Source: Clostridia bacterium (lineage in GTDB: Bacteria > CBDUZB01 > JAGLHV01). Taken from it: a stretch of DNA of 64,000 bases. Shown one piece after another: positions 28,796 to 51,715 of the stretch. How positions within the stretch are numbered: the stretch's first letter is position 1; each line of letters opens with the position of its first letter. The DNA is taken from assembly GCA_030595925.1 (NCBI GenBank), contig JAUVLC010000001.1, forward strand, positions 1,476-65,475, read 5' to 3'. A model generated the notes under the pieces. It was not told the origin of the DNA, ran no database searches, and saw only the letters and a program-made list of their open reading frames with translations. A program made the translations under genes and the position numbers.

Positions 28796-28930
28796 TTTTC
28801 TATTACCTCCTTTCGTTTTTAAGCTAAGAGCTAAGAGCTAAGAGCTAAGAGCTTAGTGCAAAAAGCTAAGAGCAATCTAAACCCGCATTTTTTTATCCTG
28901 TATCATGTATCATGTATCATGTATCATGTA

Positions 28931-29137
28931 TCATGTATCATGTAATTTGGACTGATTTTCCTGTTCTACTTCCTCTTCATAAAACTCAGAAGTTTTTTCT
29001 CTTTCCACTACCTCTCCCATCGCTCCTTCTAAAAACTTAGAAAAATCAAGACATTTCTTACCTTTCACCCCTTTAACATGAATTGTTATTTCTCCTTCCG
29101 GAGAAATACTAATTTCCATTTCTTTTTTCATGACCAT
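28931..29137 (-). CDS. DUF2997-like small protein
   Basis: 68 aa; MEISISPEGEITIHVKGVKGKKCLDFSKFLEGAMGEV...EFY fits the DUF2997 pattern; overlaps the DUF1257 gene by 10 nt. Confidence 0.55.
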   Translation of the reverse strand: MVMKKEMEISISPEGEITIHVKGVKGKKCLDFSKFLEGAMGEVVEREKTSEFYEEEVEQENQSKLHDT

Positions 29138-29532
29138 TTCCTCACTACCAATTTTATAGTTTGATCTTCTTCTACTTTATCCTCTACTAAGGTAAAACCC
29201 TGTTTTTTGACCTCACTGCTAACTTTGTTATAGGCATAGCGTTGCCTTAATTTCTGCATAAATTCTTCCTGCTTAAATCCAGCATGTGATTCTACTCCCC
29301 ACCAGTCAGCAAAAACTTCACACATACCTCCATCCTTTACTTTAACGCCTATGTCGTAAGAACTTTTGGTATCAATTTTCAAATCCGCTTCCTCTTGATT
29401 TCCATTCCAGCCTCGTACATAAACTTTGGCTTTATCCTTGCCTTCTGTATATTTATACCCTAATTCTTCTATCGTCTTCTTTAAACAAACCAAATCATTA
29501 ATTTTTGTATCTACTTTGGTAAAATGAGACAT
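29128..29532 (-). CDS. DUF1257 (Ycf35-like) protein
   Basis: MSHFTKVDTKINDL...VRGWNG...YDIGVKV...ADWWGV are hallmarks of DUF1257; RBS GGGAGG supports the start at 29532 (the track's extension to 29577 reads through the heptamer array). Confidence 0.65.
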   Translation of the reverse strand: MSHFTKVDTKINDLVCLKKTIEELGYKYTEGKDKAKVYVRGWNGNQEEADLKIDTKSSYDIGVKVKDGGMCEVFADWWGVESHAGFKQEEFMQKLRQRYAYNKVSSEVKKQGFTLVEDKVEEDQTIKLVVRKWS

Positions 29533-29707
29533 AAAAATTTTCCTCCCTTTTTTCACGATACACGATTCAAGATACATGATACAAACAAATTATTAGTGGT
29601 AGCCGCAGGCTTCAGCCTGCGTTTCCTTATGGTCATTGCTAATAGCTAAGAGTATTTCAAATTAACCTATATTCTATAATTCTATATCCTGTATCCTGTA
29701 TCGTGAA

Positions 29708-31261
29708 CTATATTTCCAATTTCCGGGAACTTTTTTCCGTATCTTTAACTATATCCATAGACGCTCTTCTTGCCCTGGTCTTTGCCCATTCCCGTATAGC
29801 TTTAATTTCTCTTTCCATTGTCTGAGAAAGAGGAATTAATTCATTAGCACTGTGAATTACCAGGTCTGTATTAATATCTGTATTTGATTCAAAAGCATCG
29901 TATAGAGCGGATATTATCACTTCTTCAATTTCCGAACCACTATATCCTTCTGTATCTTGAGCTATTTTTTCAATATCAAAATCCTGGGGATTTCTTTTCC
30001 TTTTCTGAATATGAATACGAACAATTTCTTTTCTTTCCTCAAAATCAGGTAAATCTACATAAAAAATCTCATCAAAACGACCTTTACGCAGTAATTCCGG
30101 TGGAAGTAAACTAACATTATTAGCAGTAGCTACTACAAAAACAGGGCTATTCTTTTCTTGCAGCCAGGTAATAAAACTGCCAAAAACCCTTGCGGTTGTT
30201 CCGGCATCTGAAAAAGAAGAACTTTGAGTTCCGGAAAAACCCTTTTCCAACTCATCCATCCATAGAATAGATGGGGCAACGGCTTCCGCAGTTTTAATTG
30301 CTTTTCTCATATTTTCTTCCGAAGAACCGACTAACCCGGCAAATATCTTTCCTACATCTAAACGCAACAGGGGTAATTGCCACAAATTACCTACAGCTTT
30401 AGCAGTGAGAGACTTCCCACAGCCGGGTATACCGATAAGTAAAATTCCCTTGGGCTGGGGAAGACCAAATTCTCTGGCCCGCATAGTAAAAGCTAAACCT
30501 CTTTTTCGCAGCCATTGTTTTAATTCTCCTAACCCTCCCACATCATCAATTTTTTCGTTCGCATTGTAAAATTCTAAAATCCCTGATTTTCTAATTATCT
30601 GTTCTTTTTCCGAAAGAATTACATCGATATCAAACTGTCCCTTCTTTACTAACGATTTGGCAAAAACACTTTCTGCCTCGTTGGCAGTCAATCCCAAAGC
30701 TGCTTTTACAATCCGCTCTCTTTGATTTTTATTAAGAGTAGTTTCTACCTTCGAATTATTAGGTAAAGATTTTAATATTCCATCAATAATTTGATTTAAT
30801 TCCTCTGCAGCCGGTAAATTATAATCCACCACGACAATCTCTTTCTCCAACTCAGCAGGAATTTTAAGCAAAGGAGAAAGAAAGATTAAGTTTTTATAAC
30901 TATTTTTTAAAAGCCTATTAACATCCCTTAACCTTCGCACAACTACCGGATCTTTAAAATACGGATGAAAATCACGAAAAACGAAAATTGCATTTTCTTT
31001 TGAATTAATCACTAATTCCAAAGCTTTCAGGGGATCTTTTAAATCCGGTGATTCATTTTTTATTCCGGTAATTCCTTCAGTAATCGACCAACAAATTAAT
31101 TTCTTTTCCCGCTTAAAAGCAATTTGCCTCAGGGTATTTTCTACCCGCATTTCTTCACAGGATAATAAGTATATTAAAGGATACCGTGCTCTAATCAAAC
31201 ACTCAATTTCTTCCAGTATTTTGTTATTGTCCTCTTTATCATGTTTAAATTTTCCCTCCAC
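29708..31261 (-). CDS. AAA+ ATPase (CDC48/FtsH-like single AAA module)
   Basis: Walker [10 protein letters not shown], Walker B ILWMDELE and SRH region; probable GTG start at 31261 with RBS AGGAGAGG; either the partner of DUF1257/DUF2997 or an eCIS Afp15-like assembly ATPase. Confidence 0.8.
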
Positions 31262-31328
31262 ATTCCTCTCCTTTCTTTCACGATACACGATACATGATTC
31301 ACGATACATGATACAAACAAATTATAAA

Positions 31329-49433: not shown

Positions 49434-49448
49434 ATCAAACCTCAATTA

Positions 49449-49740
49449 GGGTCTGTTGAAAAACCCATCAGTCCCTGATTTCACAGATTAGAAACCAGAT
49501 TACACAGATTAAAACTCGAACGACAAAATCGGTATAATTTGTTCAATATCTGTATAATCAAGGCTTACTGAAAAATTTATATGCAATCAAAAGTGCCCTG
49601 TCTGCGTGCGGACACGCACAGGCAGGAAGGTTTTTGGGTGATTTTGCACAAATTTCGTGCACTTTTAACCACATTTTCGCAGTCATTTGCATATTTATTC
49701 CGTCGATATTTTACATTTGTTTGCATTTTTCAATAAACCT
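49449..49740 (+). repeat. MITE-like element, copy C (with a ~95-bp internal insertion containing a GC-rich hairpin)
   Basis: Aligns with 14150-14355 over GGGTCTGTTGAAAAACCCATCAG...GGCTTACTGAAAAAT...; the insertion is CCCTGTCTGCGTGCGGACACGCACAGGCAGG. Confidence 0.6.
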
Positions 49741-49988
49741 CACTTAATTATAAAATCTTCTGCAAAACAGCTTTCTTTACCTCTAATGCCATTCCTGCCC
49801 TGTATCAAGTCTTTTGTCTCTCCTCCCCTTGTGGGAGGAGATTAAGAGGAGGGAAGCAATTAATATTTTCACCCTCACCTTAATCCTCTCCCCTCAAGGG
49901 AGAGGAAAAACACTTAGATTTGTTACTAAAATTGTGAACCTCTACACTCAGGCGGTGCGGAATGACCCGCTTTATCCACTTAACCAAT

Positions 49989-51518
49989 CTATTTCTTTTT
50001 CTTTATCGTAATTTCCACTATCGCTTTATCCTCATTAATTTCATCACTAAGAGGACCTTTTATAACACACCGGGAACGTGTGGAAAAAACTTCTTTAATC
50101 TTAATTTTTCCTACTTGTACTCTCCCCGGATTGTAAATCACTCCTTTTATATTTTTTTTAATCCTGCGGTCTTCAGAACCTACATTAATTATAATTGCCT
50201 TTACCTCATCATTCCTTTTTTCCACTTCCAATACTTCGGCCCGAATTGTCTCTATTGGCGAAGTTGTTACTACCGGTGGCGAAGTTGTTGCAACTATAAT
50301 TCCTAATTTCATTTTTGCCTTTTTTATCCAATCTTGAATCTTAGAAGATTTTTCATCGAGGCTTTCTGCTTTTACAAAATATTTTAATGATTTTGCATAT
50401 TTTTTTATCGTTTTTGGAGACTTTAATCCTTTTTTTGACTCCACAATTTCTCCCTTTCCAAAATATTTCTTCCCTTTCTTAAAAAACTTCTCTGCCTTTT
50501 GCTTAGTTGGAGGATTTGTTACATCTCCTTCTAACTTTTTTGCACCAAATTTCATACCTAAACTAATCCGGTGACTATTTCCTATATCATTGTTATAAGG
50601 AACATAGGCATAATCTGCAGATAGTTTATCGGAGGAAACCATCCCCATTCCCACTCGCAGGCCATCTCCCAAATCCTGGTTGGATATATAACCCATTCTT
50701 AAATTAAAACCTTTCCAGAAACGGTATTCCGCACCTAAACTAACAAAAAAATCATTATCCAATGGAATATTAAAATCCATCGCCAAATTAAGGCGATTTT
50801 CTAACAACTTAGTTGCTGCCCCCAATTTACAATTCACAGGGAGAGTTTCTCCTTCATCAATAAATTTTATTTTAGTCCCTAAATTCTGAACAGCAATCCC
50901 GATATTTAAAGGCAATTTATAATTAGAAATATTTAACCAGGATAGATTAATCACAGGACTAAATGAGTATAAAAAACCCATATCCAGAGCAAAAGCAATA
51001 GCAGACTCATCACCTAATTGTTGCCGGATAAATTTAAGATTTGCTCCTGCTGATATTCCCAAATCCAGAAGATTTAATCTCTTGTCTAAATCTTTTTCTC
51101 CATAGGACAAAACTAATGCTAAATCCGAAGCACCTACTCCACCTGTAGCATTTCCATCCTCATCATATCCTTCCATTTTACTCATCGAAAGAAAATTTAC
51201 ACTTGCACCCAGGGTCCTTCCATATTTTAAAGGATAAGCAAAAGCAAGAAAATCATGATTAATACCGTCAATCCACTCATTATGCATAAAGGTAATCTCT
51301 TTACGATTTAAATTACCCAGTCCTGCCGGATTCCACCAAATAGTATTCACATCATCAACAATAGCTACACCAGTTTCCCCCATTGCTATTGGTCGTGCAC
51401 CTACACCAATCTTTAAAAAATTCGCTCCTGTACTTCCCGGACCACTGGCGAATGCGCATAAAGCATAGAGCATAGAGCACAAAATAACTACACTTCCTTT
51501 AAACAAAACCTTTTTCAT
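49989..51518 (-). CDS. PorV/PorQ-like (UPF0164) outer-membrane beta-barrel protein with a Lys-rich C-terminal extension
   Basis: Signal peptide, then ANFLKIGVGARPIAMGETGVAIVDDVNTIWWNPAGLG, which resembles the conserved PorV-family N-terminus; alternating beta-strand pattern. Confidence 0.45.
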   Translation of the reverse strand: MKKVLFKGSVVILCSMLYALCAFASGPGSTGANFLKIGVGARPIAMGETGVAIVDDVNTIWWNPAGLGNLNRKEITFMHNEWIDGINHDFLAFAYPLKYGRTLGASVNFLSMSKMEGYDEDGNATGGVGASDLALVLSYGEKDLDKRLNLLDLGISAGANLKFIRQQLGDESAIAFALDMGFLYSFSPVINLSWLNISNYKLPLNIGIAVQNLGTKIKFIDEGETLPVNCKLGAATKLLENRLNLAMDFNIPLDNDFFVSLGAEYRFWKGFNLRMGYISNQDLGDGLRVGMGMVSSDKLSADYAYVPYNNDIGNSHRISLGMKFGAKKLEGDVTNPPTKQKAEKFFKKGKKYFGKGEIVESKKGLKSPKTIKKYAKSLKYFVKAESLDEKSSKIQDWIKKAKMKLGIIVATTSPPVVTTSPIETIRAEVLEVEKRNDEVKAIIINVGSEDRRIKKNIKGVIYNPGRVQVGKIKIKEVFSTRSRCVIKGPLSDEINEDKAIVEITIKKKK

Positions 51519-51715
51519 CTTCCTTCCTCCTTTCGTTATTTTAAGCTTAGAGCTTAGAGCTAAGAGCTGAGAGCATAGAGCTAAGAGCTAAGAGCATAGA
51601 GCATAGAACTAAGTGCTAAAAGCTAAGAGCAATCTAAACCCGCATTTTTTTATCCTGTATCCTGTATCCTGAATCTTGTATCCTGCATCGTGCATCCTGT
51701 ATCCTGTATCCTAAA

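Follow-up and report, generated by a model that had tools for sequence, protein, structure and literature searches.

The 64-kb stretch of Clostridia bacterium DNA analysed here (contig JAUVLC010000001.1; the window, to whose positions all leader, array and core coordinates refer, with most genes on the minus strand) carries a leader of about 19 nt shortly upstream of the start codons of four unrelated genes. Our analysis indicates that this leader is probably the fixed end of a duplicated, exchangeable upstream module, a cassette of heptamer arrays fused to an ordinary ribosome-binding site. Copying of the cassette, not duplication of a gene start or chance, is the best-supported origin of the leader's identity at unrelated genes.

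The 19-mer GCTTAAAAACGAAAGGAGG is exact at two minus-strand sites (28806-28824 and 33495-33513) and has one mismatch at a third, while the copy at the fourth gene, GCTTAAAATAACGAAAGGAGG (51526-51546, minus strand), carries a 2-nt insertion and was hence missed by the mismatch search (Table 1). When up to three mismatches are allowed, three matches are seen against 0.11 expected, and none of 100 shuffles gave three. The 9-nt core ACGAAAGGA has five exact copies, where 0.46 are expected, and each of them has a heptamer array on one side and a start codon on the other. The shared leader that an earlier sequence-only reading described at these four genes is therefore real and non-random, with the distance to the ATG measured as 10, 7, 8 and 7 nt at copies 1 to 4 instead of the 5-9 nt given there. 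The variant which that reading placed before the gene at 25780 is also present, as the fifth copy, AACGAAAGGAAAC (25763-25775, plus strand), with GGAAAC in place of GGAGG and its end 4 nt before the ATG. The rule that the leader always follows the last TAGCTCT unit holds at four of these five sites and fails at 25780, where units of the reverse complement of the GATACAG family precede it. The junctions are reproduced base for base in independent assemblies from other samples (L001, L002, L150, L151, L216, L217 and L218), so that they are not assembly artefacts.

The two halves of the leader differ in nature. The 3' half, GAAAGGAGG, is a consensus Shine-Dalgarno site 7-10 nt before the ATG at each gene; purine-rich GGAGG (GGAGA at copy 3) stands upstream of the start at all four copies, and the AAGGAGG consensus is present also at array-free genes of the window. 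The 5' half consists of a truncated last repeat unit (GCT) and an A-rich linker, TAAAAACGA; the extra 10-11 nt GCTTAAAAACG, identical among the copies, are no part of the ribosome-binding site. Below, TAAAAACG denotes the 8-nt linker, and the heptamer families are named C (WWGCTCT) and A (GAT[A/T/G]CAN), with rcC and rcA as their reverse complements. On the gene strand, the recurring order from the stop codon on is (GATACAG-like)n, several adenines plus a short AT-rich core, (TAGCTCT-like)n, truncated GCT, linker, AAGGAGG and ATG; the first A unit often supplies the TGA stop. Two core subtypes are seen, B1 (AAATTACAGATTAATTTTTAAATTAA) and B2 (AAATGCGGGTTTAGATTGC), and identical copies of each occur at different genes: AAATGCGGGTTTAGATTGC at 28872-28890 and 51629-51647, and TTAATTTTTAAATTAA at 33560-33575 and 43714-43729. 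The C-array junctions form a graded series, in which GCT is followed by TAAAAACGAAAGGAGG, TAATAAAGAAAGG or CATAAAAGGAGG, or GCTCT by AAAGGAG, and among these fusions of a C-array end to a Shine-Dalgarno site of consensus type, the 19-mer is the commonest allele. A second leader type, GTGAAAGAAAGGAG (also GTGAAAGAAAGGAGG), closes the rcA arrays at six genes, which makes shared leaders a property of array ends in general.

The arrays themselves are tandem intergenic 7-nt units far above chance. TAGCTCT has 82 exact matches against 7.05 expected, the longest period-7 array in Tandem Repeats Finder has 61.6 copies, and the unit totals are about 183 for C and 188 for A. Intergenic regions from 25.4 kb on are packed with period-7 arrays, and the housekeeping block at 1-24.5 kb is array-free, here and in relatives. 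Their orientation is fixed, and they end near translation starts: each of the 13 forward C arrays adjoins an AGGAG-type site and stops 11-31 nt short of an ATG, and six rcA arrays directly abut the Shine-Dalgarno site, with two more leading into a C array that does. The pyrimidine-rich orientations (C, rcA) lie directly 5' of ribosome-binding sites; the purine-rich ones (A, rcC) lie after stop codons, with two exceptions. Four or five positions per unit are invariant in each family. In 103 A units cut without a filter (from 38699-39127, 36780-36947 and other A arrays), positions 1, 2, 3 and 6 are invariant and variation is confined to positions 4, 5 and 7 (chi-square p 5e-29), while C units keep GC-CT and vary at positions 1-2; this pattern is not that expected from neutral decay.

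Some frames of the arrays have no stop codons, and mechanical calls of open reading frames (ORFs) therefore overshoot the true start: the ORFs at 29708-31309, 35754-36368, 39133-39990 and 59348-59998 extend upstream into rcA or C arrays, and the AAA ATPase orthologue has 517 aa, not 533. In practice, such arrays break short-read assemblies and inflate the 5' ends of ORFs, which distorts the annotation of such genomes.

The genes that bear the leader are unrelated, and encode a 144-aa protein without a Pfam match, an FHA-domain protein, a CTHRC1_C-domain protein and a PorV-like protein. For the genes at 28361, 33101 and 49989, the similarity between leader copies ends at the Shine-Dalgarno site and the Pfam content differs. 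The sole true gene-start duplication is that of the paralogues 34771..35616 and 42723..43661, which have their 5' ends in common; similarity extends into the coding sequence, as local duplication of one gene start would have it, for this pair only.

Comparison with a syntenic relative shows exchange of cassettes at orthologous genes. Contig L157 (ENA ERZ23498365), found via its AAA ATPase (94% identical protein) and carrying a PNPase of 74% identity, is syntenic with the window from 39.3 to 19 kb. Homology at three genes (144-aa, 192/204-aa and 502-aa) covers the coding sequence and continues through AAAGGAGG, where it ends, and the array type upstream differs. The 144-aa gene has C(7) and the leader in the window, whereas L157 has rcA+GTGAAAAAAAGGAGG, with homology restarting at AAAGGAGGTAATA; the 192/204-aa gene has A, B1, C(3) and the exact 19-mer in L157, but rcA+ATGAAAAAAAGGAGGG in the window; and the 502-aa gene follows rcA in the window and C(4)+GCTAAAAAAGGAGGG in L157. 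The FHA gene has the full cassette with the exact leader in the window, whereas in L157 it is array-free, with a hairpin and a different Shine-Dalgarno site, and homology restarts exactly at the ATG. Shared by both genomes are B1, C and GCTTAATAAAGAAAGG at the 281/341-aa gene, rcA+GTGAAAGAAAGGAG at the AAA ATPase and DUF1257 genes, and C+GCT[C/T]ATAAAAGGAGGG at the VWA gene, whose rcC array has 26 units in the window and 4 in L157. Since homology ends at the Shine-Dalgarno site, this site is anchored to the gene, and the part upstream, including GCTTAAAAACG, moves with the cassette. Judged by these alignments, cassettes are exchanged on a time scale of about 10% sequence divergence.

The mobile or duplicated expression module proposed in the sequence-only reading stands in so far as the upstream element is duplicated and exchangeable, given that similarity ends at the Shine-Dalgarno site, that the genes are unrelated, that cores are shared and that L157 differs by exchange. 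Its composition as array, leader and start does not: the module is larger (A array, core, C array and leader), contains neither start codon nor coding sequence and is not tied to TAGCTCT alone.

The same comparison bears on the history of the region. Genes on the injection-system side (window 26300-39300 against L157 1-9800) are 88-93% identical in nucleotide sequence, bar one pair at 80%, while the adjacent rimP, nusA, infB and rbfA (window 19000-25400 against L157 10200-17193) are 72-76% identical. Relatives closer by PNPase (L004, L152) have proS at the position of the island. The identity contrast, together with proS, suggests a recent transfer or introgression of the island. An injection-system locus of another organism (L159) is array-free, its 505-aa, FHA, VWA and AAA genes being separated by gaps of 14-22 nt, which argues that the arrays are an addition in the window's lineage. 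A different heptamer array, (CCAAGCA)3.6, lies between rimP and nusA in L157 (11850-11880), where the window has none.

As to mechanism, cassettes would be copied or exchanged between intergenic regions, and unrelated genes would thereby gain the same linker and Shine-Dalgarno string. The likely route would be recombination or gene conversion between two anchors, the arrays at one end and the Shine-Dalgarno region or the ATG at the other, with arrays growing and shrinking by slippage. The cassette ends (A array on one side, linker and Shine-Dalgarno site on the other) are not inverted repeats, and no transposase was seen in the window in association with the cassettes. The sole comparison of a filled and an empty site, that of the FHA gene, spans a complex difference of 1.3 kb, in which an insertion boundary or target-site duplication is unreadable. 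The leader itself would most likely serve as a normal, accessible site for ribosome binding, closing a 5' or intercistronic RNA segment that is rich in pyrimidines, poorly structured and variable in length. The anatomy, the non-random occurrence, the exchange at orthologous genes, the hypervariable arrays and the predicted want of structure come directly from the analysis. We infer that the arrays are transcribed, that they spread by recombination and that the role of the leader is limited to ribosome binding.

Several points weigh against this explanation. At least four cassettes, in two genomes whose islands differ by 7-12% in nucleotide sequence, have the same linker TAAAAACG, and this identity could reflect selection on the linker rather than recent copying. 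Homology at the Shine-Dalgarno site is about 9-12 nt, which is short for ordinary homologous recombination and makes the copying mechanism uncertain. The presence of the arrays in mRNA is presumed, and complementarity to the anti-Shine-Dalgarno sequence is assumed, the 3' end of the 16S rRNA lying outside the window (a search for rRNA genes in the window returned none, only a tRNA-Arg). The evidence base consists of 64 kb from the genome itself and 17 kb from a single relative.

There is no sign of the common translational control element that the sequence-only reading had considered: the 3' half of the leader is a generic consensus Shine-Dalgarno site, with no Rfam match and no stable predicted structure, and a dedicated translational control role for the leader is unproven. 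An Rfam search of the whole window (cmscan, E<=1) gave only a tRNA and chance miRNA-like matches, none at a leader or array. The full leader cassettes, with folding z scores of +4.3, +0.9 and -0.8, fold no better than shuffled sequences and so do not qualify as structured leaders; eight shorter 5' regions gave z from -2.0 to +3.3, positive in six. Three more specific functions were considered and rejected. A consensus scan found no sigma-70 promoter in the cassette core, and overall gave 86 sites against 76.7 expected, which is no excess; a hand-picked TTACAG-N16-TAAATT promoter is unconserved between core copies. In a CsrA sponge formed by (CAGGATA)n, the GGA would fall on the most variable position of the unit. 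Masking of the Shine-Dalgarno site by the array, through CUCUU-AGGAG pairing via G-U, occurs in some minimum-energy folds, and is weak and absent for the rcA type.

A different picture is predicted wherever both orientations of one family occur in one intergenic region. Very long hairpins are then predicted (z -6.4, -10.6 and -10.8, at 32655-33105, 31255-31525 and 58980-59350, minus strand). Their 3' arm runs up to the following gene's Shine-Dalgarno site and ends there, and they are possible substrates of double-strand RNases. A predicted fold of 946 nt also encloses the FHA gene, its 5' TAGCTCT (C) array pairing with the 3' AGAGCTA (rcC) array (z -5.0). Both kinds of fold favour a role in RNA processing or insulation, in which the A/U-rich single-stranded linker would be an endoribonuclease site that trims the array from a polycistronic transcript, the leader would set the mature 5' end and the arrays would act as processing or stability elements. 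Several intergenic regions (36764-36945, 59999-60127) are consistent with this, since array fills them between the stop codon and the Shine-Dalgarno site and leaves no space for a terminator or promoter, so that the arrays are probably intercistronic RNA; a precedent is the heptamer-repeat hairpin in the 5' untranslated region of Haemophilus hmw1A, which is cut by RNase III (PMC12721329). However, the cassettes that bear the leader hold non-complementary arrays (GATACAG, TAGCTCT) and are themselves predicted to be unstructured, and the support comes from predicted folding throughout. We consider processing rather unlikely as the explanation of the leader.

It is also conceivable, though we think quite unlikely, that a specific protein or small RNA binds the linker, alone or with the adjacent heptamers, and so brings translation of the marked genes under joint control. 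The identical linker at unrelated genes in two genomes would agree with this, as would the conservation of the A units, which is the pattern expected of a periodic binder, and the same idea has been put forward for TAACTGA repeats in Beggiatoaceae (PMC4679880). Yet a repeat-generating mechanism could yield the same conservation pattern, no candidate binder has been identified, and the marked genes have no common function. Moreover, at orthologous genes the leader is absent or swapped for another array type, contrary to what a gene-specific regulatory need would imply.

The arrays vary in length between near-identical genomes, which raises the question of an expression rheostat of the contingency-locus type, where array copy number tunes each downstream gene and the leader is a fixed boundary. 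Two contigs of Joint Genome Institute (JGI) metagenome 3300040952, L216 and L218, equal the window over about 11.3 kb outside three arrays, and their leaders are identical to those of the window. L218 has no mismatch over 6,936 nt, with 14 nt more in the rcC array near 45078 and 28 nt more in the C array near 42550, both multiples of 7; L216 has 12 mismatches and 22 gap positions, all inside the C array at 26524-26951 (clustered at 26550-26701). Repeat number thus differs between otherwise identical genomes, as it does in contingency loci, and the arrays are hypervariable, although assemblers, notably with short reads, can mis-size repeats. The differing unit numbers of orthologous arrays, such as the 26 and 4 noted above, point the same way, and expression of hmw1A is inversely proportional to the length of its (ATCTTTC)n (PMC12721329). 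Hypervariability is, however, expected of any tandem repeat, so that function does not follow from it, and arrays of 40-60 units far exceed known rheostats. We judge a rheostat to be improbable.

Convergence by chance or composition is highly improbable, as is local duplication of a single gene start: an AT-rich genome with a strong Shine-Dalgarno consensus will often give similar strings (a degenerate 16-variant leader pattern has 46 matches in viral contigs) and the one paralogous pair has its 5' ends in common, but the shuffle expectations of 0.11 and 0.46 compare with three and five copies seen, the other genes are unrelated with similarity ending at the Shine-Dalgarno site, and similarity reaches upstream into shared cores. 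The viral-contig matches are single, in ordinary stop-plus-Shine-Dalgarno contexts and without arrays.

Beyond this locus, the leader is at chance level in other lineages. In a collection of 185,579 species genomes (596 Gb) that excludes the source genome, the 18-mer has 23 single matches against about 17 expected (both strands, from 596 Gb / 4^18), and no genome has two copies. A scan of metagenomes for (TAGCTCT)3 gave at least 120 contigs, of varied G+C content but mostly 55-65%, and none of the window's lineage, and no further leader copies were found at these loci. Only 2 forward and 7 reverse of 134 metagenome TAGCTCT arrays adjoin a Shine-Dalgarno site, and the adjacency seen here is therefore lineage-specific. 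Among these contigs (L030-L149), those from soil and peat with 55-65% G+C commonly contain (TAGCTCT)n and its close variants TAGCTTT, TAGTTCT and TAGCTGA; an inverted copy often lies a few tens of bases off, and the arrays are seldom beside start codons.

Start-codon-adjacent heptamer arrays are a known, poorly understood kind of sequence, and the leader alone is ordinary. Earlier reports of them concern cyanobacteria, giant sulfur bacteria and Haemophilus, with a role established in Haemophilus only. One close likeness is to the TAACTGA intergenic heptamer direct repeats of marine Beggiatoaceae (MacGregor 2015, PMC4679880), which are likewise tandem 7-nt intergenic units in fixed orientation to the downstream gene, end a few nucleotides from the start codon, precede unrelated genes and are suspected of a translational role. 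In contrast to these, the units here (WWGCTCT, GAT[A/T/G]CAN) match neither TAACTGA nor the short tandemly repeated repetitive sequences (STRR) of cyanobacteria; there are at least two heptamer families and a short third, under a fixed rule of order and orientation; the longest array has 61 units, where those of the Guaymas genome have 2-6; a strong Shine-Dalgarno site of canonical type, rare beside TAACTGA, always follows; and a common non-repeat linker is present.

The Haemophilus influenzae hmw1A/hmw2A repeats, (ATCTTTC)n, resemble the arrays here as pyrimidine-rich tandem heptamers 5' of the gene whose number varies from cell to cell; they are transcribed and pair with a purine-rich partner into a long hairpin (PMC12721329), and comparable hairpins are predicted here wherever both orientations co-occur. 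In contrast to that single pathogen locus with its experimental rheostat and RNase III processing, the dozens of loci here are known from sequence alone, and most leader cassettes have no complementary partner in their own intergenic region. A global regulatory role has been proposed for the start-codon-adjacent heptamers of Nostoc (bioRxiv 10.1101/2022.06.06.494920). These and the STRR are also lineage-wide, intergenic tandem families near promoters or start codons, but they differ in phylum and units, and have neither the ordered multi-family grammar nor a linker fused to the Shine-Dalgarno site. Composite intergenic elements with ordered modules and an internal module of variable copy number are also represented by the BIMEs (bacterial interspersed mosaic elements) of E. 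coli and the pneumococcal BOX elements (boxA-boxB(n)-boxC). Like the cassettes, these are scattered between unrelated genes and within operons, whereas they consist of palindromic units of 35-60 bp in place of 7-nt arrays, and only the cassettes always end at the ribosome-binding site of the next gene.

What is new here is the multi-family orientation grammar, the shared linker, the exchange of cassettes at the Shine-Dalgarno boundary and the setting, a contractile injection system island in an uncultured lineage. Tentatively, and with some if small chance of being right, the leader may be one visible element of an intergenic grammar that works at the RNA level, in which orientation-ruled families present a 7-nt register to be read by a protein, much as oligomers of the HutP and TRAP type read spaced triplets; the invariant positions of the units are what such reading would lead one to expect. 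According to the orientations combined, an intergenic region would form either a long double-stranded hairpin for processing or an open pyrimidine tract with the shared leader at its end. If such a grammar exists, it would amount to a combinatorial, fast-evolving setting of processing and translation for each injection-system gene, with cassettes swapped like parts. The locus offers a clean natural experiment, with two families, a fixed linker, orthologous cassette swaps and near-identical genomes that differ only in array length.

Table 1 Leaders, arrays, cores and hairpins located in the window
Feature	Position	Strand	Remarks
Leader copy 1, exact GCTTAAAAACGAAAGGAGG	28806..28824	-	10 nt 5' of ATG of 28361..28795 (144 aa, no Pfam match)
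Leader copy 2, exact GCTTAAAAACGAAAGGAGG	33495..33513	-	7 nt 5' of ATG of 33101..33487 (FHA-domain protein)
Leader copy 3, 1 mismatch (final G to A, ends GGAGA)	43670..43688	-	8 nt 5' of ATG of 42723..43661 (CTHRC1_C domain)
Leader copy 4, GCTTAAAATAACGAAAGGAGG, 2-nt insertion	51526..51546	-	7 nt 5' of ATG of 49989..51518 (PorV-like protein)
Leader variant GCTTAATAAAGAAAGGGG	35625..35642	-	before 34771..35616; first 16 nt GCTTAATAAAGAAAGG identical at L157 orthologous gene
Leader variant GCTTAATAAGGAAAGGA	26505..26521	-	before 26299..26499, 3' of 61-unit TAGCTCT array
Leader variant AACGAAAGGAAAC	25763..25775	+	before TPR gene 25780..26124; preceded by ATCCTGT/ATCGTGA units (rcA)
Second leader type GTGAAAGAAAGGAG	31268..31281	-	ends rcA array before AAA ATPase gene; others at 59978-59991, 38464-38477, 36326-36340, 29542-29556, 58987-59000
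C array, WWGCTCT, 7 units	28827..28875	-	directly 5' of leader copy 1
C array, 6 units	33516..33557	-	directly 5' of leader copy 2
C array, short, about 3 units, TAGCTCTAAGCTCTGTGCT	43689..43711	-	5' of leader copy 3
C array, 12 units	51549..51632	-	5' of leader copy 4
C array, 44 units	25390..25697	-	abuts AAAGGAG and ATG of 24507..25382, without the TAAAAACG linker
C array, 61 units	26524..26951	-	holds all differences from near-identical contig L216
Core B2, AAATGCGGGTTTAGATTGC	28872..28890	-	between A and C arrays; identical to 51629-51647
Core B2, second identical copy	51629..51647	-	PorV-like gene cassette
Core B1, AATTACAGATTACAGATTAATTTTTAAATTAA	33560..33591	-	also 43714-43745; variants at 35682-35705, 25710-25730, 26964-26984
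A array, GAT[A/T/G]CAN, 6 units	28898..28939	-	begins at stop codon of upstream gene; first cassette part
A array, 8 units	33593..33648	-	FHA cassette
A array, 9 units	51655..51717	-	PorV-like gene cassette
Hairpin GCAGGCTNNAGCCTGC sites	29605-29620, 31338-31353, 32739-32754, 34353-34368, 38624-38639, 43824-43839, 44898-44913, 57701-57716	both orientations	

The window has 33% G+C, with nearly all genes on the minus strand. Relatives of its PNPase were found at 98, 92-93, 83 and 74% identity, and the nearest named matches, at about 53-58%, are in genome bins of Elusimicrobia, Zixibacteria and Omnitrophica. The housekeeping block (1-24.5 kb) contains recA, ftsK, pnp, rpsO, infB, nusA and rimP. 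From about 29 kb to the end of the window (29000-64000, minus strand) extend a contractile injection system and associated proteins: two eCIS_core proteins, a tube protein with a LysM domain, a gpD hub, two spike proteins, gp25, baseplate J, PAAR and tail protein I, together with AAA ATPase, DUF1257, DUF2997, FHA, VWA, PorV-like and type IX secretion system (T9SS) sorting-domain proteins. The sheath genes presumably lie past the window end. A search for orthologues of the PorV-like protein found no relative above 40% identity, and an exact-protein look-up of the FHA gene found no record.

Two toxin-antitoxin pairs, MazE/ParE-like and AF2212-like/PIN (33706-34275 and 44011-44747, plus strand), lie on the opposite strand in long intergenic regions, and two perfect TTGACA-17-TATAAT promoters (33666-33694, plus strand; 34541-34569, minus strand) stand beside the MazE/ParE-like pair. 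A gene for a 23S rRNA intervening-sequence protein (PF05635; 36365-36763, minus strand) is found between the 502-aa gene and its neighbour; a 24-unit A array fills its entire preceding spacer, and L157 has a 245-nt non-coding spacer there. Repeats also occur within genes, in frame and in tandem: two of 393 bp in the 577-aa LysM-containing protein (41092-41875), and three of about 183-195 bp in an NHL-repeat protein with a T9SS sorting domain (52663-53596).

Other intergenic elements accompany the arrays. The G+C-rich hairpin GCAGGCTNNAGCCTGC, flanked by GGCTACC/GGTAGCC, is present in eight copies in both orientations (Table 1), three of them within a repeated element of about 80 nt, and has no Rfam match. 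An element resembling a miniature inverted-repeat transposable element, GTCATTCC...GGAATGAC, is intergenic in both genomes (window 57822-57882 and 59170-59230; L157 5460-5560 and 7860-7960), and a palindromic repeat, CTCTCCCTTGAGGGGAGAG, occurs at 49886-49904 and 59277-59295.

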